A stretch of DNA of 64,000 nucleotides from a phage. Positions within the stretch are counted from its first letter, which is position 1. Each line of letters begins with the position of its first letter. This document shows, one piece after another, positions 10,188 through 24,752 of the stretch. The notes under the pieces were generated by a model that saw only the letters and a list, made by a program, of their open reading frames with translations, ran no database searches and was not told the DNA's origin. Where the stretch lies: sequence record PQ338057.1; one strand, written 5' to 3'. The position numbers and the translations under genes were made by a program.

Positions 10188-10789
10188 GGATTCACTCTCA
10201 TTGTGTCAATAACATGGACCGCCCCGCCTTCATGCGCGGTGCCACCGGAAATAATTGTTTCGTTGATATACGGATAGATCGTGATTTCTTCGCCAAGATA
10301 GCTGGCGGCTCCCACCCAATGCGGGCCGCTGGTCTGCAGGTTGATGGACATGCCGATCATGTGACGGCTGCATGGTTTGGCATCGCTTATCAGTCGCTCA
10401 AGTTCCAGATAGGTATCTTCAGTGATGCCCTGGTCCTGCACGCCGATATCCAGACGAAACGTGCCCGGTGTCTCTCCGGTCTGCCACCACTCAATAATGC
10501 GGATCAGAAAGCCGAACGGCTCCACCACCCGCCGCACGGCACTGGTGGTCCCTTTATGCTGATGAATATAAAAAGCATCCTTCACCACCTGGCGCTTGAC
10601 ACTTTCTGTCCAGTCCTCGTCCCAGCGATCCACAGAGAACGCCCAGGCGAGATAAGGCAGGAAACTGACCGGACAGGTTGCCGGATTCCACAAGTCACGA
10701 AGCGGCACCTGCAGATCAGAAATCCCGCTGCAGGTTTGCGCCAGTCGGCGCTCCAGTGGTGTTGAACCCGGTGGCAGCAGACTATTCAT
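10184..10789 (-). CDS. baseplate assembly protein gpI
   Basis: Similarity to P2 gpI (LWNPATCP...LPYLAWAFSVDRWDE); gene order J-I-H. Confidence 0.8.
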   Translation of the reverse strand: MNSLLPPGSTPLERRLAQTCSGISDLQVPLRDLWNPATCPVSFLPYLAWAFSVDRWDEDWTESVKRQVVKDAFYIHQHKGTTSAVRRVVEPFGFLIRIIEWWQTGETPGTFRLDIGVQDQGITEDTYLELERLISDAKPCSRHMIGMSINLQTSGPHWVGAASYLGEEITIYPYINETIISGGTAHEGGAVHVIDTMRVNP

Positions 10790-11690
10790 CCGTTCCTCCG
10801 TTGGTTACGCTCCACTGCGTACATGATGCCGCCTGTGTTTTGTTCAGGACCACATCCGCCAGAGGAGAAGCCAGCTCCACACGCTGCACACCCTCAACAT
10901 GCAAGGCGGCAAAGATGGCGCTACGGCGAATATCCCGACCAAGACGCGTCTGACTGGCGATGTACTTCTGCAGGCTGGCTTTTGCCGCTGCCATTACCGG
11001 CTCTGCTTCCGGTCCCGGATAGAGAAAAATGGTGGCTTCCACGCGATACGGGATGATTTCTGCGCTGCGAACCGTCAGACGGTCAGCCACCGGGCGGACG
11101 TTCTCACTGTTCAGGGCTTTTTCCACCACATCCAGCAGGTCTTTTTCTGCTGTTCCGTCGCCTTCACGGCTAAGGACAGTCAGTACCACCTCTGCAGGTG
11201 CCGGACTGGTTGCACTGGCATCCGCCACCCGACCGTCGGCGCTTCGGGCATGAAATTCATAGGCTGCAGTTGGCCCCGCAACTGAAAGCCCTTCAAAGGC
11301 TGCAGGCACACGCAGGCGTAACGCTTCATCGCTTTCCATCACAGCCGCAACGGGCGGCACAGCGTCATTATCAGCAGGCGTCACCGTCAGGCGTTTCACG
11401 TTGTAGTTGGCAGCGAGCTGGTCAAGATCGCCGCCCATCGCGTAAGCCACCATCACCGCCTGCGCGGCTTCGTTAATGCGCTGGCGCAGAAGCAACTCAC
11501 GGTAAGCATTCTCCTGCAGCAATTTGGTGACGGGTTCAGATTCCAGTTCCAGCGTGCGGATCACGGCTTCCTGCTCATCTTTCGGATGAAGCGCAACAAA
11601 TTCGGCCTTGCGTTCGGCAAGCAACGTCTCAAAGTCCGGCACATCGACAATCTGCGGCGCAGGCAACTGCGAAAGGTCAATCACTGCCAT
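10782..11690 (-). CDS. baseplate assembly protein gpJ (302 aa from MAVIDLSQL)
   Basis: Length and position match P2 gpJ; start at internal Met of track ORF. Confidence 0.8.
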   Translation of the reverse strand: MAVIDLSQLPAPQIVDVPDFETLLAERKAEFVALHPKDEQEAVIRTLELESEPVTKLLQENAYRELLLRQRINEAAQAVMVAYAMGGDLDQLAANYNVKRLTVTPADNDAVPPVAAVMESDEALRLRVPAAFEGLSVAGPTAAYEFHARSADGRVADASATSPAPAEVVLTVLSREGDGTAEKDLLDVVEKALNSENVRPVADRLTVRSAEIIPYRVEATIFLYPGPEAEPVMAAAKASLQKYIASQTRLGRDIRRSAIFAALHVEGVQRVELASPLADVVLNKTQAASCTQWSVTNGGTDE

Positions 11691-17655: not shown

Positions 17656-18680
17656 TGGGAAAGAGTAAGAAAAACCGCGCTGCGGCGACGAACCAGATCC
17701 AGCATAAAAACCAAACTTCAGCCGAAGCATTCAGCTTCGGTGATCCCGTTCCTGTTCTGGACCGCCGCGAATTACTGGACTATGTGGAATGCGTAAAGAT
17801 GGACCGCTGGTATGAGCCACCCGTAAGTTTTGACGGACTGGCGCGAACATTCCGCGCCGCCGTACACCACAGTTCACCGATTGCAGTAAAGTGCAACATT
17901 CTGACCAGCACCTACATCCCTCACCCGCTGCTCAGCCAGCAGGCGTTTTCACGTTTTGTGCAGGACTATCTGGTTTTTGGTAACGCCTACCTGGAGAAAC
18001 GCACGAACCGATTCGGTGAAGTTATCGCCCTTGAGCCTGCGCTGGCAAAATACACCCGACGCGGATTAGACCTAGATACCTACTGGTTTGTGCAATACGG
18101 CATGACCACGCAGCCGTATCAGTTCACGAAAGGCAGCATTTTTCATCTGATGGAACCGGACATCAACCAGGAGATCTACGGCCTGCCCGGCTATCTTTCT
18201 GCCATCCCATCCGCCCTGCTCAACGAGTCCGCCACGCTGTTCCGCCGAAAGTATTACATTAACGGTAGTCATGCAGGCTTCATCATGTACATGACCGATG
18301 CCGCGCAGAACCAGGAAGATGTGAACAACCTCCGCAATGCGATGAAAAGTGCCAAAGGCCCTGGCAACTTCCGCAACCTGTTTATGTACTCGCCTAATGG
18401 TAAAAAAGACGGACTTCAGATTATCCCGTTGTCAGAAGTCACAGCGAAGGATGAGTTTCTGAATATCAAGAACGTGAGCCGTGATGACATGATGGCGGCA
18501 CACCGCGTGCCGCCGCAAATGATGGGAATTATGCCTAATAATGTCGGGGGGTTTGGGGATGTGGAGAAGGCTAGCAAGGTATTCGTAAGAAACGAATTGA
18601 TGCCCCTGCAGAAACGATTGCAGGAACTAAATAACTGGTTGGACGAAGAAGTGCTCAATTTTTCAACCTATGAGCTTTAG
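17652..18680 (+). CDS. portal protein gpQ
   Basis: 342-aa ORF; P2 gpQ-like. Confidence 0.85.
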   Translation: MMGKSKKNRAAATNQIQHKNQTSAEAFSFGDPVPVLDRRELLDYVECVKMDRWYEPPVSFDGLARTFRAAVHHSSPIAVKCNILTSTYIPHPLLSQQAFSRFVQDYLVFGNAYLEKRTNRFGEVIALEPALAKYTRRGLDLDTYWFVQYGMTTQPYQFTKGSIFHLMEPDINQEIYGLPGYLSAIPSALLNESATLFRRKYYINGSHAGFIMYMTDAAQNQEDVNNLRNAMKSAKGPGNFRNLFMYSPNGKKDGLQIIPLSEVTAKDEFLNIKNVSRDDMMAAHRVPPQMMGIMPNNVGGFGDVEKASKVFVRNELMPLQKRLQELNNWLDEEVLNFSTYEL

Positions 18681-18688
18681 TTTTAAAA

Positions 18689-18708
18689 CGAAGACCATTA
18701 GGTCTTCG
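18689..18708. terminator. hairpin cgaagacc-atta-ggtcttcg between convergent Q and the retron RT
   Basis: Perfect 8-bp inverted repeat overlapping the RT stop codon. Confidence 0.4.
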
Positions 18709-19660
18709 CTTTATTTAAAGGGTTCTTTCCATATTTTTTTTCTAATTTGCTAATATAAGTTATTAATCTCCTATGGCTTTTTGAATCCACACTTAAAATA
18801 AATGACAACCATCCCCTAACGTGTTCTATCTCAGAAGACTTACCGCAAAATATATGATGTATCTTTGCTCTAATTTCTTTATATTTTTCTCTACCTATCC
18901 CAACTTTCTCTTGTGAAATAACTAAACCTGTAACTTTCCTCTGACTACGAGGCCCACTAATACAAGTTTTTTTTGAGTTAATAACCAATCCTTCACTTGG
19001 GATTATAGAAAATAAAAAATCACGTGCTTTAACAACCTTTTTCATAGACTGTGCAGATAAGGTGAGATCATCGGCATATCTCGTATATATCAAGCCCCGA
19101 CTACCTGCATAACCCTGAATACGATAATCAAGTTTAGAACATATTAGATTAGCTAATTTAGGTGATGATGGAGCACCTTGTGGTAGCAGATTTTTATAAC
19201 AACATATTTTTGTCAAAACTGAAGATATTAGTCGATTATAACCAAGAGAATGGAACACTCCAAAAACTTTGTTAGCAGTTAAACTTGGGAAAAAATCCTC
19301 CAAATCAATATTCAGTATAAAGTTTGCCCCAATATGCGGGGTAGCATTATTCAAAATAGATTGGTGCTTTTCAAATCCAATAGAAAAAGGAGATGACGAC
19401 AGTTTATCTAAAATGTTACGTAGAACCCATCCTTGTAAGGCTTTAAGTTCTCGAGAAGGTTGGTAAATGGTTCTCATTCTCTTCTCTGGGCCTTTCTTTT
19501 CTACAGTGTAGATCCTATAGCGAAAATCAGCTGTATAGATTAACAACCGAAGTGTTTCAACAGATATGCGAGTCGCCTTAGACATGTCATGCAAATTGTT
19601 CATGACAGGTAGGCCGAGATTTCTCAATCTAAAAGTGTTCAAATATTCAGCGGATTTCAT
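18698..19660 (-). CDS. ret: retron reverse transcriptase (Retron-Eco1 / Ec86 RT), 320 aa
   Basis: YADD active-site motif (RYADDLTLS); sequence MKSAEYLNTFRLRNLGLPVMNNLHDMSKATRISVETLRLL recalled as the Ec86 RT; immediately downstream of msr-msd. Confidence 0.95.
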   Translation of the reverse strand: MKSAEYLNTFRLRNLGLPVMNNLHDMSKATRISVETLRLLIYTADFRYRIYTVEKKGPEKRMRTIYQPSRELKALQGWVLRNILDKLSSSPFSIGFEKHQSILNNATPHIGANFILNIDLEDFFPSLTANKVFGVFHSLGYNRLISSVLTKICCYKNLLPQGAPSSPKLANLICSKLDYRIQGYAGSRGLIYTRYADDLTLSAQSMKKVVKARDFLFSIIPSEGLVINSKKTCISGPRSQRKVTGLVISQEKVGIGREKYKEIRAKIHHIFCGKSSEIEHVRGWLSFILSVDSKSHRRLITYISKLEKKYGKNPLNKAKT

Positions 19661-19666
19661 GAAAGT

Positions 19667-19841
19667 TGCGCACCCTTACGTCAGAAAAAACGGGTTTCCT
19701 GGTTGGCTCGGAGAGCATCAGGCGATGCTCTCCGTTCCAACAAGGAAAACAGACAGTAACTCAGATTCAATGCAGGATGCCGAAACAACATCCAGAGGTT
19801 GACCTTAATGATAAACCTCTCGCTAAGGGTGCGCATACGGA
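19667..19841 (-). ncRNA. msr-msd: retron msr-msd non-coding RNA (Ec86): msr about 19749-19841, msd about 19681-19766, a1/a2 inverted repeats at 19824-19835 and 19667-19678
   Basis: Minus strand reads ATGCGCACCCTTAGCGAGAGGTTTATCATTAAGGTCAACC...; plus strand 19681-19766 reads TCAGAAAAAACGGGTTTCCTGGTTGGCTCGGAGAGCATCAGGCGATGCTCTCC..., the msDNA-Ec86 sequence as recalled. Confidence 0.9.
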
Positions 19842-20746
19842 ATCTTATCATAGTTAAATGTTGATTTTCTACGGTTTTCAAAATTCATAATCTCAAGCCG
19901 CAATCGGTCAAGTGTCTTTCTATCAAAGACGCTCCTAACATAGCTAGCCCCCAAAGCAGTGACCTGATAACCATCAGTCATTTGAAGTATTTTTCGTTCA
20001 TTTATTAGACGAGAAACAACGGATCTAACAATAATTTTAGATAAAACATCATCTTGCTTTATCGCTTTAAAAGCTAGTTCACACAGTGTGCGGTAGTTGA
20101 CACTATCCAGTAAATAGATACAAGGCAATAGAAACCGCTCTGCGTATAATATATTTCCAATATCTTTTGATACTTTATTTTCTTTCCTAACCTTCTTAAT
20201 AGATGCCATTAATTTTTTATATAATCGTAATTTTCTGGCAACATCAATAGATGAATCACACATTTCTTTTAGTTCATTTGAACTACAACGCAAAACAGAT
20301 TTTGAATTAAACTTACGCAACAGGCGAACAGGACCATAGTTAATAAAGCTACGTTTTGATTTAAATTTTGCATCTTGAATGCAAATCAACTTTCTCCTTA
20401 AGTTTTCATTATTAGAGAACGCACCAAGCTCTGTGAAAGACCCCGGACTTTCAGGAAATAAAATTATTACATCGACAGCTTCAGCCAGAATATTTTCTAA
20501 ACTTAAAAGGCTATGCTGCCCTTGACCAGCCAAAAGATCATCAAATAGATCTTCTGGATAAAATATATCAACATCACTGAACTTTGCTAAAAATTGTGAT
20601 AATTGATGACGCCAAGATTGATGATTAGCAACGTCACCACCACATAGAAAAATGGTTATTTTAATATTAGCTCCTCGATAGAAGCCTTTCTTTGTGAGAT
20701 GTCCTATAAGCTGTTGTTGCTGCTCATCGGTAAATTTTTTATTCAT
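19823..20746 (-). CDS. retron effector, nucleoside 2-deoxyribosyltransferase-like (NDT-like) protein, 307 aa
   Basis: Upstream of msr-msd on the same strand, stop codon inside the msr a1 region; Rossmann-like motifs (IFLCGGD, ILFPESPGSFTELG); AT-rich; NDT assignment from recall of Retron-Eco1, not verified. Confidence 0.75.
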   Translation of the reverse strand: MNKKFTDEQQQQLIGHLTKKGFYRGANIKITIFLCGGDVANHQSWRHQLSQFLAKFSDVDIFYPEDLFDDLLAGQGQHSLLSLENILAEAVDVIILFPESPGSFTELGAFSNNENLRRKLICIQDAKFKSKRSFINYGPVRLLRKFNSKSVLRCSSNELKEMCDSSIDVARKLRLYKKLMASIKKVRKENKVSKDIGNILYAERFLLPCIYLLDSVNYRTLCELAFKAIKQDDVLSKIIVRSVVSRLINERKILQMTDGYQVTALGASYVRSVFDRKTLDRLRLEIMNFENRRKSTFNYDKIPYAHP

Positions 20747-21218
20747 AATCTCCCCGCTTTTTTTTCTACTTTATACATCAAGTTATGAATAGATCCAATC
20801 TCCATACCACATGGCGCGCGCTCGTATCCCCGCCACGCCTGCCCGCTTTATGCAGTGGTTTTCATGCACATGCATAACATGAGCAAAAGCCCGCCAGTTC
20901 TGGCGGATCTGAGCAAAGACGATCCTCAATCGATCATGCGATTTCATGCAGCATAGTCATGCACTGTCAAGGAAGTGAAAATCCGTATCTGAATGGCCAC
21001 TTGAAAAACGGATCATACGGGTTTACAAAGATGAATGTTCGCTGTGAACGGGAAGCGGAAGTTAACTTTCAGATAACATAATCCATATGCACGAGAACCT
21101 CTAAAATAGAATGGGACACCTAAGCGGGGTACTTACAACGATTCTTTCCATATTCACAGTTAACACTCTGTTTGGCGTATTTTTATTCAAATAGCAAACA
21201 CCAATAAAAGGAGTTTCC

Positions 21219-21554
21219 ATGAACAATATTCCCCCTATACCACAGTTAGGAATTTATGTCTCAAAAATCGATCCCACCCTACGTATCACTGTAACCGATG
21301 TTGATATTGTTGATGGTGAGGATGATTCTCCTGATGATGAATTGTTTTATTTAGTCCACTGGATCGAGGGGGAAGATGAAAGTGATATGACAGCAATGGG
21401 ATTTGAGCTAGACCCAGTAGAGTGGCAGGCTTTCGTTGAATCTGAGCAATTAGTGTTTGAGCGTGATCCGTACATGGATTCAATCCCCGAAAATTCAAAC
21501 TTGGCAAAGATTCGGGATTTTCTCATGAAGACTAAACAGAATGATCATTCGTAA
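21219..21554 (+). CDS. small acidic protein of unknown function (111 aa)
   Basis: AAAGGAG RBS 7 nt upstream of ATG; very D/E-rich; located in the accessory slot next to the retron. Confidence 0.6.
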   Translation: MNNIPPIPQLGIYVSKIDPTLRITVTDVDIVDGEDDSPDDELFYLVHWIEGEDESDMTAMGFELDPVEWQAFVESEQLVFERDPYMDSIPENSNLAKIRDFLMKTKQNDHS

Positions 21555-21746
21555 GTGTAAGCATCCATCAGGAAAATGGTTTTGTAAGTGAATCATCAAC
21601 TTTTAGAGAGTCTCAGACACTCCCACTTCTGCTTCTGACACAAAGCGGACGATCACTTATCAAAATAACCGCCCACCTTACGCCTTATTTCACTCATTGC
21701 CCAAACTAGCCCCCATCAGAATGAATCCTCCTGGGGGCAACATTTC

Positions 21747-21980
21747 TTAATGCAGCCAGCTGTCGTCCTCCCACACCTTCTGCATAATTTTCATCACTTG
21801 TTTTCTTTCTTCATCCAGTTGCAGTCCGGTTAGTTCCACACCGTTAGAGCTACCTTTGCGAATGCGAATTACCGTTTTGGGATACAGGGGGCGCAGATTG
21901 CGGTAAAGCTCGGATTCAAGGGCGTCCAGGGTAGACTGGCTAATCTTCTGCTCTTTATCGATCATTATTTCAATGCGCAT
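21747..21980 (-). CDS. DinI-family protein (77 aa from MRIEIMIDKEQ)
   Basis: Resembles DinI (MRIEV...ALE.EL...QETWE..DW); GAGGTGA RBS; start at internal Met of track ORF 21747..22052. Confidence 0.7.
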   Translation of the reverse strand: MRIEIMIDKEQKISQSTLDALESELYRNLRPLYPKTVIRIRKGSSNGVELTGLQLDEERKQVMKIMQKVWEDDSWLH

Positions 21981-21990
21981 AAAAGTCACC

Positions 21991-22179
21991 TCAGCTGATG
22001 ACATCCATTGAGCGGTTGTATTCGTGGCTTCTGATTTTTGCCATGAGTTCATCAGTCAATTCAGAAACCCACTGCAGAGCCAGCCCCTTCTCTTCATCAC
22101 TACACTCACTAGCCGCTACAAGCTTAAGAAAAAAATCAATGCGCTGGAGCTTCAAAGACTCCAAAAAATAGTCCTGCAT
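21991..22179 (-). CDS. small protein (62 aa), first gene of SOS-controlled operon; possible Tum-like antirepressor N-terminal part
   Basis: AGGAGG RBS 6 nt upstream; LexA box overlaps the promoter; stop is 10 nt before the DinI-like start. Confidence 0.55.
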   Translation of the reverse strand: MQDYFLESLKLQRIDFFLKLVAASECSDEEKGLALQWVSELTDELMAKIRSHEYNRSMDVIS

Positions 22180-22219
22180 CTTTCCTCCTATGACACCAAA
22201 ACAATACTGTATACATAAC

Positions 22220-22239
22220 CACTGTTTATATTTACAGTA
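22220..22239. promoter_or_regulatory. LexA (SOS) box CACTGTTTATATTTACAGTA
   Basis: CTGT-N8-ACAG with AT-rich spacer, about 40 bp upstream of the 22179 start codon. Confidence 0.7.
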
Positions 22240-22331
22240 TATAATAATCTTACTGATGTAAAACGTTTTTTTACGTTCATCGGCCTGATATGCCTGGTAT
22301 TATTAAGAGCACGAATTGTCAACCCGCGTAA

Positions 22332-24752
22332 TTAATACAGGTTCCGCCACTTATCATCTTCCTTCAGACGCTGGTTCCGATAGAAGATACGCAGGCCTGC
22401 TCCTGACGGAATACTGCCGCCGCGAAGGAGCAAATCGACTTCTTTCTCGCTGCCATCAAATCCCCTGGACTTCAGTTCATAGACGAGCTGCTGTCGCTGA
22501 TGGTCTGTAATTCGCTGTTTGTAGTCTTTACGCCGTTTCGGTTTCACCTGGCGTAACCTTGCAGCCAGTTCCCGGCGCTCTTTTTTGCTCATACTGTGCA
22601 GGTAATTGTGCAACTCCTTGTCATTCATACGGGTAATATCCGTTCTGGAGTCCCCATCAGCTGATTTGTCTTTCCCTTGTTGGTTCAAATTTTCAGCAAG
22701 GGGACAGTTATTGCCACGAGTCCAAGGGGCGCAAGCGCCCTGGTCGGCTGCCGCCTCCTGAACGTCAACGGCCTTACGAACCATTTTCCACTTCACCGCA
22801 TGAGTGCAGATCTTGCCCTCTGCAATGGGTGACCAGATGCCATAAATACGAATACCGTGATCGCCATATGCGGTCGGTTCTTCGTTGATTTCATAAGCAG
22901 TTCTGATGAGGTGATATTTGCGGGGAACCAGTACGCCGCCCTGCTTCATGATGTAGGTGGCAAAACAACCAGCATCAGCAGCAGCCAGGATTGCATCAAG
23001 ACGCGGGTTATCCAGTACCGGCGCACCTGCTTTTTTGTCACCCTGTTGCCTTGCCGCCTGACCAGCCAGCAATCGCAGTTCACGGTAAGCCTGACGCCCC
23101 GGAATGCCAAAGAAGCGGAATTGCTGAACACGATGCAGAGACGCCCAGGCATTAACGTATTCAGCGTTATCACGCAGGGATTTACCCGTTTCCTTGCTGA
23201 TCTCCCCAGCCAGACCACGCCCGTCAATGTTCTTACTGATGTATTTCGCGATATAGCTTGTTGGCGTACCTTTGCGCGGGTTTATCAGCTCAGACTTAAA
23301 GCGTGGTCCCGTGTTATTGCCCAGCTCCTCGCGGTCTTCACGGATGGCAAACTTACGCAGTAATGCAGTGATGGCGCGGCGGTCTTTTTTACGCATGAAA
23401 CACATGAGATGCCAGTGCACAGTACCGTCATGATGCGGCTCAGCTACCCGCACGCCATACCAGCGCAACTCGGCTTTATGCATAGCCTTACGAAATGCAG
23501 CAAACATGCCGACCAGATAATCGCTACTTTGTCTTACCGTCGCGTTTGTCCAGGTCGGGTTTGGTCTGCCGTTATTGAGCGTGGAATGGAAACGCGACGG
23601 ACAGGTGATAGTGTAGAAAACGGCACAGTCACTGCGCATTTCCGCGATAAGCTCCAGACCTTTAACACAGGCCATCATCTCATTGCGGCGATGCGCCGGG
23701 TTGCTGCTGCTGGCGTTTACCACATCTTCCATATCCAGCGTGTCGCCGTCTTCGTTCACCAGTTCATGAGAACGAAAAAACTCCAGCGACTTACGGCGCT
23801 GCTCACGTTTATGCATCACGGCTTCATAGCTGACATAGGGGGATGCTTTTTTGCTGACCAGGCAGACAGCACGCAACTGCTCTTCCCGCCATTCGCAACG
23901 CATCTTCCATAATTTCCGATACCACCAGTCGGCACACAACATACGCGCCAGCGAACCCGGGATGAGTTCATAGAGCACTGGTTTGCGGCGGTTTATTTTC
24001 CGACGAAGTTTCTCAAACGCAGGCGGGATAACATCCAGACGCAGGGTTTCCGCTGCCACCTTTTCCCATGTCTTGCGGATTTCTTCTGGCTTAACGTCAT
24101 CGGTGGCATACAAATCACCACAAGCGTCCTCAAGACACATGCTCATATGCGCTGCTACCAGGGTGGACAGGCGTTTCACCTGATCCTGGCTCATTTCAGG
24201 CAGGATCAGCAGACCCTCCAGCCCTTGATGGCTTGCCATAAAACGGAAAGAAACAGATAGCTGACTGTCACGTACACAATCCAGTCGCTCCAGACATGGC
24301 TTAATCGTCTCACGCAAATAGCGGGAATAAGCCTTTGGCCTGCCCAGGCTGCTGAAGTATTCAATACGTTGCATCAGCGGCTTGCTGATATGGGAAGGCT
24401 GGGCGTTTACGTCCGCCAGAATGACCATGTCCGGATTAAAACGCTGCTGCTCATGCGCCAGCTTTGCCCGGCTAATGAGCTTATCCTGCTCCATTTCGCG
24501 CTGGACAGGATCACGGGATTCATTAAAGAAATAACGCTCCCAGACCTGCTCACTCAGTGCCTCGCGGCGCAGTTGTTCCTGCTCGTTATCGGCAGCGTAC
24601 AGAGTGATCAGGTTTGAAAGTGCAGACTCCGGCGCAACTTCCGCCGGGTCCAGATAAGGGTTAATGGCCTTTTTCGAGCCGTTCCATGAAAATGCTGCGG
24701 CGGCCTCGTTAAAGCCGCTGCAATAGTTCATATCGTCATGACTCATACACAC
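22332..24752 (-). CDS. replication initiation protein gpA (rolling-circle nicking endonuclease)
   Basis: 806-aa ORF; P2/186 A-like, with HUH-like motif (TVHWHLMCF) and tyrosine region ([13 protein letters not shown]). Confidence 0.85.

Follow-up and report, generated by a model that had tools for sequence, protein, structure and literature searches.

What is a small, strongly acidic gene doing beside retron Ec86 in the prophage of E. coli B, and does it belong to that retron? The gene is a 111-codon open reading frame (ORF) on the plus strand of the window, by which we mean the whole 64,000-nucleotide stretch of sequence record PQ338057.1 analysed here. The original prediction, made from the DNA letters, took its product for a possible DNA mimic or anti-defence factor resembling Ocr, placed it in the same accessory slot as the retron, and recognised no family. 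Our analysis demonstrated that the gene, a member of the family DUF8087, is an independent, mobile moron that is expressed in the lysogen and occupies the slot that holds old and tin in phage P2. Its product may act as an acidic decoy.

The reading frame runs without interruption from ATG to stop, 111 codons and the stop codon, and the predicted consensus ribosome-binding site (RBS), AAGGAG, lies 5 nt upstream of the ATG at 21219. An A/G-rich RBS is found at the matching position in eight cassette copies of other genera. The acidity ascribed to the product was also borne out. It contains 15 Asp and 11 Glu residues (23.4%) against 7 Lys/Arg, which gives a net charge of −19 and a pI of 4.05, and both acidic runs that had been singled out are in place, DGEDDSPDDE as residues 32-41 and EGEDESD as residues 50-56. 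The G+C content of the ORF is 40.5%, compared with 50% for the window, 53-57% for the neighbouring phage backbone genes, and 34-35% for the retron genes. We estimated the ratio of nonsynonymous to synonymous substitution rates (dN/dS) among 12 orthologues from E. coli, Morganella, Klebsiella, Serratia, Symbiopectobacterium, Lonsdalea, Proteus, Buttiauxella, Enterobacter, Xenorhabdus, and Raoultella. The median over 59 pairs was 0.154 and the maximum 0.328, demonstrating that the gene is under purifying selection. The low dN/dS, the RefSeq annotation, and the transcription described below together indicate a genuine gene beyond chance.

The statement that no family could be recognised did not hold. 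The protein is identical to RefSeq WP_001059831.1, which bears the PGAP name 'DUF8087 domain-containing protein'. Precomputed annotation placed Pfam family DUF8087 (PF26332) on 61 of 61 homologues, including the homologue P0001 at 98% identity, and the profile of PHROG 17127 ('unknown function') matched with an E-value of 2e-70, residues 1-111 aligning with profile positions 1-111. The window protein is thus a full-length member of both, differing from neither, and the family is without described function, structure, or literature. Scans against a local Pfam copy, NCBIfam, and PADLOC (E up to 1) gave no match for the ORF; Pfam scans of each of 36 relatives gave scattered single matches with a best E-value of 0.02, and PDB sequences yielded none to the family profile with E up to 10. 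A profile search of 1.84 billion representative sequences returned only 34 relatives, and a search of species genomes with the narrow DUF8087 alignment returned five loci. The distant relatives are 68-127 aa long and have the core, residues 5-80, in common. Literature searches for 'DUF8087' and WP_001059831 found no papers. Rousset et al. 2022 list WP_001059831.1 only in the supplementary table of the genes at each P2 hotspot locus, as 'hypothetical', and the gene was not found in the other eight supplementary text files of that study. Since the sequence is already catalogued (RefSeq, DUF8087, PHROG 17127) and the hotspot has been described, the finding does not amount to a new kind of system.

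To place the gene, we scrutinized the prophage around it. The window carries a P2/186-like prophage of E. coli B, which is 100% identical in REL606, in BL21 derivatives, and in E. coli C. The gene order is terminase, portal, retron Ec86 (Eco1), the acidic ORF, a DinI-like gene, a 62-aa ORF, the replication endonuclease gene gpA, Dam, and onwards to CII and CI. The retron lies 472 bp from the acidic ORF on the opposite strand, in agreement with the divergent arrangement originally described. Between the two lies the cohesive-end site, cos. The reverse complement of positions 20821-20839, GGCGTGGCGGGGATACGAG, agrees with the annotated cos of P2, GGCGAGGCGGGGAAAGCAC, at 13 of 19 positions, and the flanks are conserved (75% over 64 nt). 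The 260-nt segment bearing it (20806-21065) occurs in some 1,290 of the 5,426 E. coli genomes searched and in the records of Fels-2, SopEPhi, and Klebsiella P2-like phages. Because cos stands between them, the retron and the DUF8087 gene occupy separate accessory slots, and the proposal of a shared one has to be given up. It also follows from the position of cos that, in the packaged genome, the retron is at the left end (cos to Q) and the DUF8087 gene at the extreme right end. P2 itself is without cargo at the left end of the virion DNA, between cos and Q, where the retron sits.

The right-end slot has a known counterpart. In the P2 reference annotation, the lysogenic-conversion genes old and tin make up a 'TO region' between A and cosR; they lie on the strand opposite to A, and their mRNA begins about 150 bp away from cosR. 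The layout in the window is identical, with cos at one side, the acidic ORF on the plus strand, and gpA on the minus strand. What the DUF8087 gene has in common with old and tin is the slot between cos and the replication-gene side, transcription from the cos side toward gene A and hence convergent with the early operon, a low G+C content, and expression from the prophage. There is no similarity in sequence or domains. Old is a 586-aa ATPase/nuclease and Tin is a protein of 253 aa, whereas the DUF8087 product is a predicted acidic barrel of 111 aa without an enzymatic motif.

The distribution of the gene confirmed its separation from the retron. The cassette that carries it was present in the window setting in 132 of the 5,426 complete E. 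coli genomes, and only 46 of these 132 have Ec86. Among 32 P2-like loci with the cassette, we counted 22 different cargoes between portal and cos, Ec86 being the cargo in three. The identical protein lies beyond cos from Ec86, from an Ec67 retron, from a DprA-like gene, or from others. PADLOC assigned the reverse transcriptase (RT) to RT_II-A and the effector to NDT_II-A, and gave no match for the acidic ORF. The ORF is neither co-inherited with the Ec86/Eco1 system as one unit nor recognised by its defence models. One could still suppose that the protein is a component or regulator of the retron, for instance a sensor, or a buffer that acts on the NDT effector in the manner of an antitoxin, given the 472-bp distance, the divergent orientation, and the presence of the cassette with Ec67-type retrons in some prophages. 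This is extremely improbable in the face of the intervening cos, the low share of Ec86 among genomes and loci, the identical protein beside the DprA-like gene and many other cargoes, the lack of a PADLOC match, and the occurrence of the gene without a nearby retron in other genera. The question whether it travels with the retron was thereby answered in the negative. We conclude that the DUF8087 cassette is independent of the retron, and that a retron-specific role is essentially excluded.

Expression in the lysogen was examined in RNA-sequencing data for REL606-derived clones grown to mid-log phase in citrate minimal medium, for which Blount et al. 2020 (PMC7299349) provide kallisto tables. 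The lengths of ECB_00824 to ECB_00833 (858, 2415, 189, 306, 336, 165, 924, 963, 1029, and 1767 nt) fit exactly those of Dam, gpA, the 62-aa ORF, the DinI-like ORF, the acidic ORF, a 54-aa ORF, the NDT effector, the RT, portal, and terminase in the window, and this unbroken agreement over ten genes identifies ECB_00828 as the window gene. In 15 samples it was represented by 22.8-381 transcripts per million (TPM; median 166.5), values that derive from 1-172 reads per sample and from libraries whose strandedness is not stated. In the same samples its neighbours had medians of 0.87 TPM (gpA), 33.6 TPM (retron effector), and 7.4 TPM (RT). A lack of expression, which had been named as an argument against the original prediction, is therefore not what the data show, and the gene is expressed from the repressed prophage as an old/tin-type gene would be.

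The gene also stands apart from the SOS response. A perfect CTGT-N8-ACAG box (22222-22237) is the single one in the window and lies 43 bp upstream of the 62-aa ORF, which the DinI-like ORF follows. We take the arrangement of these two ORFs to resemble the tum operon of phage 186. LexA control of the DUF8087 gene was considered and rejected, the sole box standing upstream of that pair instead. The pair, ECB_00826/27, ranged from 0 to 414 TPM, and ECB_00828 does not follow it; Blount et al. 2020 (PMC7299349) found the pair up-regulated with SOS genes. Because its levels are independent of ECB_00826/27 and above those of gpA and the retron genes, we can conclude that the DUF8087 gene is a constitutively transcribed unit in the lysogen, separate both from the lytic genes and from the SOS operon, and from the retron as well, as read from libraries of unstated strandedness.

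We then asked what moves with the gene and where it came from. In a cassette-free P2-like prophage (locus L028) the match to the window breaks off at 21065 and is taken up again at 21631, and these two points set the limits of the insert; a gene for a P-loop (KAP-type) NTPase takes its place there. Homology to island copies, which come from E. coli, Morganella, Serratia, Lonsdalea, Proteus, and Raoultella, sets in at about 21056-21098, and the mobile unit comprises about 160 nt of upstream sequence, the gene, and a stub of an integrase gene (int). The upstream region is presumed to hold the promoter. Its identity among copies (88.6%) is about that of third codon positions (86.6%), and it thus bears no sign of extra constraint. 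A non-canonical promoter candidate was picked out by eye, TTCACA (21153-21158) and TATTTT (21178-21183) separated by 19 nt; a scan for a canonical sigma-70 promoter or an intrinsic terminator of the DUF8087 gene found none. A structured RNA or leader upstream of the gene was also considered and rejected, on the grounds of no Rfam match within 18600-22400, no covariation by alifold, and divergence equal to the synonymous level.

The 3' end of the cassette reveals its origin. Overlapping the DUF8087 stop is MIIRKCKHPSGKWFCK*, a clear relic of the N-terminus of P2-family Int, VTVRKLPSGKWLCQCF. Translated, the relic lines up with VTVRKLPSGKWLCQCFPYG, the Int N-terminus in Klebsiella prophages, whose int gene overlaps the stop of DUF8087 just as the relic does in the window. 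The lysogeny operon of prophages in Klebsiella spp., Enterobacter kobei, and E. coli, and likewise of five IMG/VR contigs, reads cI, a gene for an FlkN-like protein (210-215 aa, with a C-terminal membrane anchor), DUF8087, and int, the start of int overlapping the DUF8087 stop. These prophages adjoin pgsA-uvrC wherever the flank was recovered. A looser variant in Buttiauxella has a 247-aa ORF, DUF8087, an ORF on the opposite strand, and int. Intermediates were also recovered: int fragments of about 56-62 aa stand behind DUF8087 in the island and P2-like copies L064-L066 and L070, and the islands and three P2-like cos slots show the order DUF8087, int fragment of 56-62 aa, and a 127-aa ORF. The latter, which has a hydrophobic N-terminus and matches no family, is absent from the window. 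Because the int relic ends the cassette, we conclude that the cassette is an excised piece of the cI-int lysogeny operon found in related 186-like prophages. A tblastn search of the window found no remnant of the FlkN-like gene. The FlkN-like family has at least 195 clusters (at 90% identity) compared with about 60 for DUF8087, indicating that DUF8087 is an optional insert in the cI-int operon, too. A paper on the P2 regulatory region (PMC3448106) makes no statement on genes between the repressor gene and int.

As the cassette holds an obvious pseudogene fragment, the int relic, and an upstream region that evolves at about the synonymous rate, the ORF itself might be a functionless hitch-hiker left over from the lysogeny operon. 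We regard this as very unlikely, since dN/dS stays at about 0.15-0.2 whatever the genus or context, both the acidity and the key residues persist down to 25-30% identity, every context retains an unbroken ORF behind a strong RBS, and the transcript is abundant.

Outside P2-like prophages the gene turned up in varied company, its enterobacterial copies lying on integrative islands beside genes of defence type. In a Morganella/Providencia island it lies beside a 1,169-aa helicase-PLD protein, with ArdB/KlcA also aboard, and in an E. coli island at ychF it accompanies a 1,590-aa DEAD/DEAH helicase, a NACHT protein, and an AAA ATPase. It stands beside Lamassu operons in Raoultella and Serratia fonticola, and beside a DUF4365-TPR protein in Lonsdalea. 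The distant homologues with usable contigs, three in number, all adjoin the integrase of small int-AlpA-GPA elements, the cargo of which includes SRA-HNH, SMEK, TIR-STAND, a BglII restriction-modification system, and Gabija. The gene has a place in both regions of P2 in which defence genes accumulate, gpA-to-gpQ and between int and primase. In tblastn searches with the window protein, 50,697 deposited phage records gave no match and 72,556 plasmid records a single one, in a record that looks like the genome of a P2-like phage. In the corresponding hotspots of P4, six of eight randomly chosen loci of unknown function conferred phage resistance (PMC13586616).

The proximity to int raises another explanation, namely that the protein serves its own element by modulating the integrase, the repressor, or the GPA-type replication module, for example as a cofactor or inhibitor of Int or as a buffer for an antirepressor. 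In more than 10 divergent 186-like prophages the gene directly precedes int, the stop codon of the one overlapping the start codon of the other; its distant homologues adjoin int in three of three small elements; an int relic travels with the cassette; and a solitary copy in Pantoea sits at the same pgsA-uvrC attachment region. However, solo cassettes remote from any intact int, in the cos slot and on islands, remain under purifying selection (dN/dS of about 0.2 against the window). The gene is optional. The tblastn search with the window protein gave no match in the deposited phage records, many P2-like phages among them, the FlkN-like family is far larger, and the cI-int region of the window itself is without DUF8087. 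Acidic proteins are, moreover, unlikely to serve as DNA-binding directionality factors. On balance, we consider a role internal to the element unlikely.

The predicted structure offered further clues. AlphaFold runs with 28 close homologues gave a pLDDT of 78.8 and five models at odds with each other, whereas 70 sequences including distant relatives gave five models of 80-84 with a pTM of 0.71 and a single topology. The predicted fold is a five-stranded β-barrel with helices, in the order of strands 11-15, 22-31, 43-50, and 60-64, helix 66-75, strand 78-82, and helices 84-87 and 94-109. Both acidic runs fall in predicted loops, between strands 2 and 3 and between strands 3 and 4. The C-terminal 30 residues are absent from the distant relatives. 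Invariant or nearly invariant residues are P8, G11, Y13, S15, V25, V28, L45, V46, D56, E63, W69, and L78. All 36 of 36 aligned members, down to 25% identity, carry a net charge of −8 to −22, with acidic loops of differing lengths. A Foldseek search of the model against BFVD and the PDB returned nothing below E = 0.04. The best, weak matches were DUF1653 (PDB 3be3) and small barrels of SH3/Tudor/KOW type, among them FeoA, domain I of EF-P, and the Tudor domains of CarD/CdnL and UvrD. These are likewise small barrels, and they serve in binding proteins or nucleic acids. The fold is confidently predicted and without a close solved relative, and the product is predicted to be a cytoplasmic, strongly acidic five-strand barrel with helices.

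On the basis of these features we propose, tentatively and as one possibility among several, that the cassette is a lysogen-expressed moron whose acidic product binds a basic partner as a decoy in conflicts between mobile elements. The protein would have no enzymatic activity and would act stoichiometrically. In the model, an acidic surface around the conserved aromatic residues Y13 and W69 could form the interface, and the target, presumably a basic and probably nucleic-acid-binding protein, would be sequestered or blocked, so that the prophage or island gains a factor for contests with other elements. A precedent for such a mode of action may be seen in CarS of Myxococcus xanthus, an acidic antirepressor with an SH3-like fold, which sequesters a repressor by imitating operator DNA (PMC2926617). 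CarS falls in the same size class (about 86-111 aa), is acidic, and works purely by protein-protein binding, the mode proposed here for DUF8087. It has a five-stranded antiparallel β fold of SH3 type, and the matches of the DUF8087 model to SH3/Tudor-like barrels are weak. The likeness is one of analogy, not homology.

We lean to a function on the side of the lysogen because the gene is expressed in the prophage state and placed in the defence-gene regions of P2, because the deposited phage genomes, those of virulent phages included, gave no match and the plasmids only the single P2-like one, and because most of the P4 hotspot loci mentioned above conferred phage resistance. Within the decoy proposal, exclusion of other phages or satellites, by a logic like that of tin, seems somewhat more likely than counter-defence. 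Several points weigh against the proposal as a whole. No DUF8087 member has a known binding partner, phenotype, or biochemical activity; a single non-enzymatic protein of 111 aa is atypical for stand-alone defence; the close adjacency to int in many elements could mean an element-internal role; and, on the side of expression, the scan found no canonical promoter for the gene and the strandedness of the RNA libraries is not stated.

Counter-defence is the purpose that the original prediction had in mind. A DNA mimic of this kind would inhibit a defence of the host or of a rival, for example type I restriction, BREX, RecBCD, or Lamassu, and so help the prophage or island to become established or to survive induction. 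In favour of this, the protein combines small size and strong acidity with a distribution confined to mobile elements. Mobile elements cluster anti-defence genes beside defence genes, and DUF8087 is often found beside defence genes, in one island together with the ArdB/KlcA anti-restriction gene; CarS shows that an acidic SH3-like barrel is able to mimic DNA. The likeness to Ocr (T7 gp0.3) and ArdA goes no further than small size, high acidity, and coding by mobile elements. Those proteins are elongated dimers, mostly helical, that mimic bent B-DNA and are made as soon as infection or transfer begins, whereas the DUF8087 product is lysogen-expressed and predicted to be a β-barrel with acidic loops. 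It belongs to none of the Ocr, ArdA, and KlcA sequence families and its predicted fold is not the elongated helical or DNA-shaped one, and searches of anti-restriction and other families in Pfam, NCBIfam, and PADLOC and of PDB sequences gave no match. The single, P2-like match among the phage and plasmid records searched, its place in the cI-int operon with constitutive expression in lysogens and not with the early lytic genes, and the rarity of known anti-defence genes in P2-like phages (28 of 1,511) also argue against such a role, which we hold to be improbable. The protein may as such still act by charge mimicry. Of the original prediction, then, a genuine acidic protein in an accessory region of a P2-like prophage stands, and the slot shared with the retron does not.

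A bolder form of the decoy proposal is that DUF8087 founds a new structural class of acidic decoys, carried by P2/186 prophages and int-AlpA-GPA elements and expressed in the lysogen to neutralise a basic DNA-binding protein. It would be expressed alone or with the preceding tail-anchored FlkN-like protein, and its target would belong either to a phage or satellite entering the cell or to a defence system of the host. We regard this as doubtful.

The coordinates of the gene, the cassette, and the features around them are collected in Table 1.

Table 1. Positions of the DUF8087 cassette and of related features. Coordinates refer to the window unless a locus number (L) is given, in which case they refer to that locus.
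Feature	Coordinates	Strand	Remarks
DUF8087 gene	21219..21554	+	111 aa, acidic; WP_001059831.1; ECB_00828 of REL606
Ribosome-binding site AAGGAG	21208..21213	+	5-nt spacer to ATG; read from the sequence
Mobile cassette	21056..21630	+	Upstream region, gene, and int relic; cos-proximal right-end slot
Upstream region moving with the gene	21056..21218	+	About 160 nt; presumed promoter region
P2-family integrase 5' relic, MIIRKCKHPSGKWFCK*	21541..21591	+	17 codons, 51 nt; overlaps DUF8087 stop
cos cohesive-end site	20821..20839	-	Outside cassette; boundary of retron slot and DUF8087 slot
Retron Ec86 RT	18698-19660	-	
NDT-like retron effector	19823-20746	-	
62-aa ORF	21991-22179	-	
DinI-like ORF	21747-22052	-	After the 62-aa ORF
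127-aa ORF	L003 5657-6040; L016 and L017 8538-8921; L064-L066 7538-7918; L070 538-918		
Flk_N protein	L009 7343-7990; L019 5341-5976; L036 5344-5976; L072-L076		

Some observations were made along the way on the neighbours and relatives of the cassette. The 54-aa ORF at 20783-20947 on the minus strand (ECB_00829 of REL606) overlaps the cos region and had 0 TPM in 12 of 15 samples; it is probably not a gene. The start of the Ec86 RT differs between annotations, PGAP giving 295 aa (888 nt; 3599-4486 in locus L001) and the older REL606 annotation, from the first ATG, 320 aa (963 nt). The region 19661-19822 between the RT and the effector, where msr/msd lie, gave no Rfam match with E up to 1 and permissive filters. 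In E. coli E2348/69 (locus L002, 4027-4715), about 700 bp between the DprA-like gene and the cos segment are unannotated, and may hold a missed or decayed partner gene of the DprA-like gene; a PRTase was discussed by Rousset et al. 2022 as the probable effector of DprA-like hotspot systems.

Further afield, the 'Flk_N' protein of 210-215 aa with its C-terminal transmembrane anchor follows cI in many 186-like prophages of Klebsiella, Enterobacter, and E. coli. It is presumably expressed in the lysogen and is a candidate for superinfection exclusion. The Lamassu-family operons with which DUF8087 is convergent differ from each other (6804-10488 in locus L023 from Raoultella, 7395-11536 in locus L038 from Serratia fonticola); the two islands are independent, and the neighbourhood may be coincidence or a hint of a functional link. 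The solitary DUF8087 gene of Pantoea sp. beside pgsA-uvrC (locus L026, 7001-7309) is divergent, with 33% identity, and looks like a remnant because no prophage genes were called within 7 kb on either side.

What is new here is the separation of the gene from the retron by cos, the origin of its cassette as betrayed by the int relic, the breadth of its contexts, its high expression in the lysogen, and a confidently predicted fold without a close relative. E. coli B derivatives such as BL21 and REL606 are among the most heavily used laboratory bacteria, and in them the DUF8087 gene gives the top transcript in this stretch of the P2-like prophage, well above retron Eco1. As a practical consequence, it should not be treated as a part of the retron when Ec86 is cloned with its flanks. 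The slot that it occupies is a hotspot where untested genes frequently prove antiviral. Since the family is conserved, acidic, and found beside many defence systems, screening the gene by knockout or expression could bring to light a small protein that acts as a new inhibitor, together with its target. If DUF8087 does found a class of acidic decoys, E. coli BL21 would carry a previously unrecognised single-gene conflict module.

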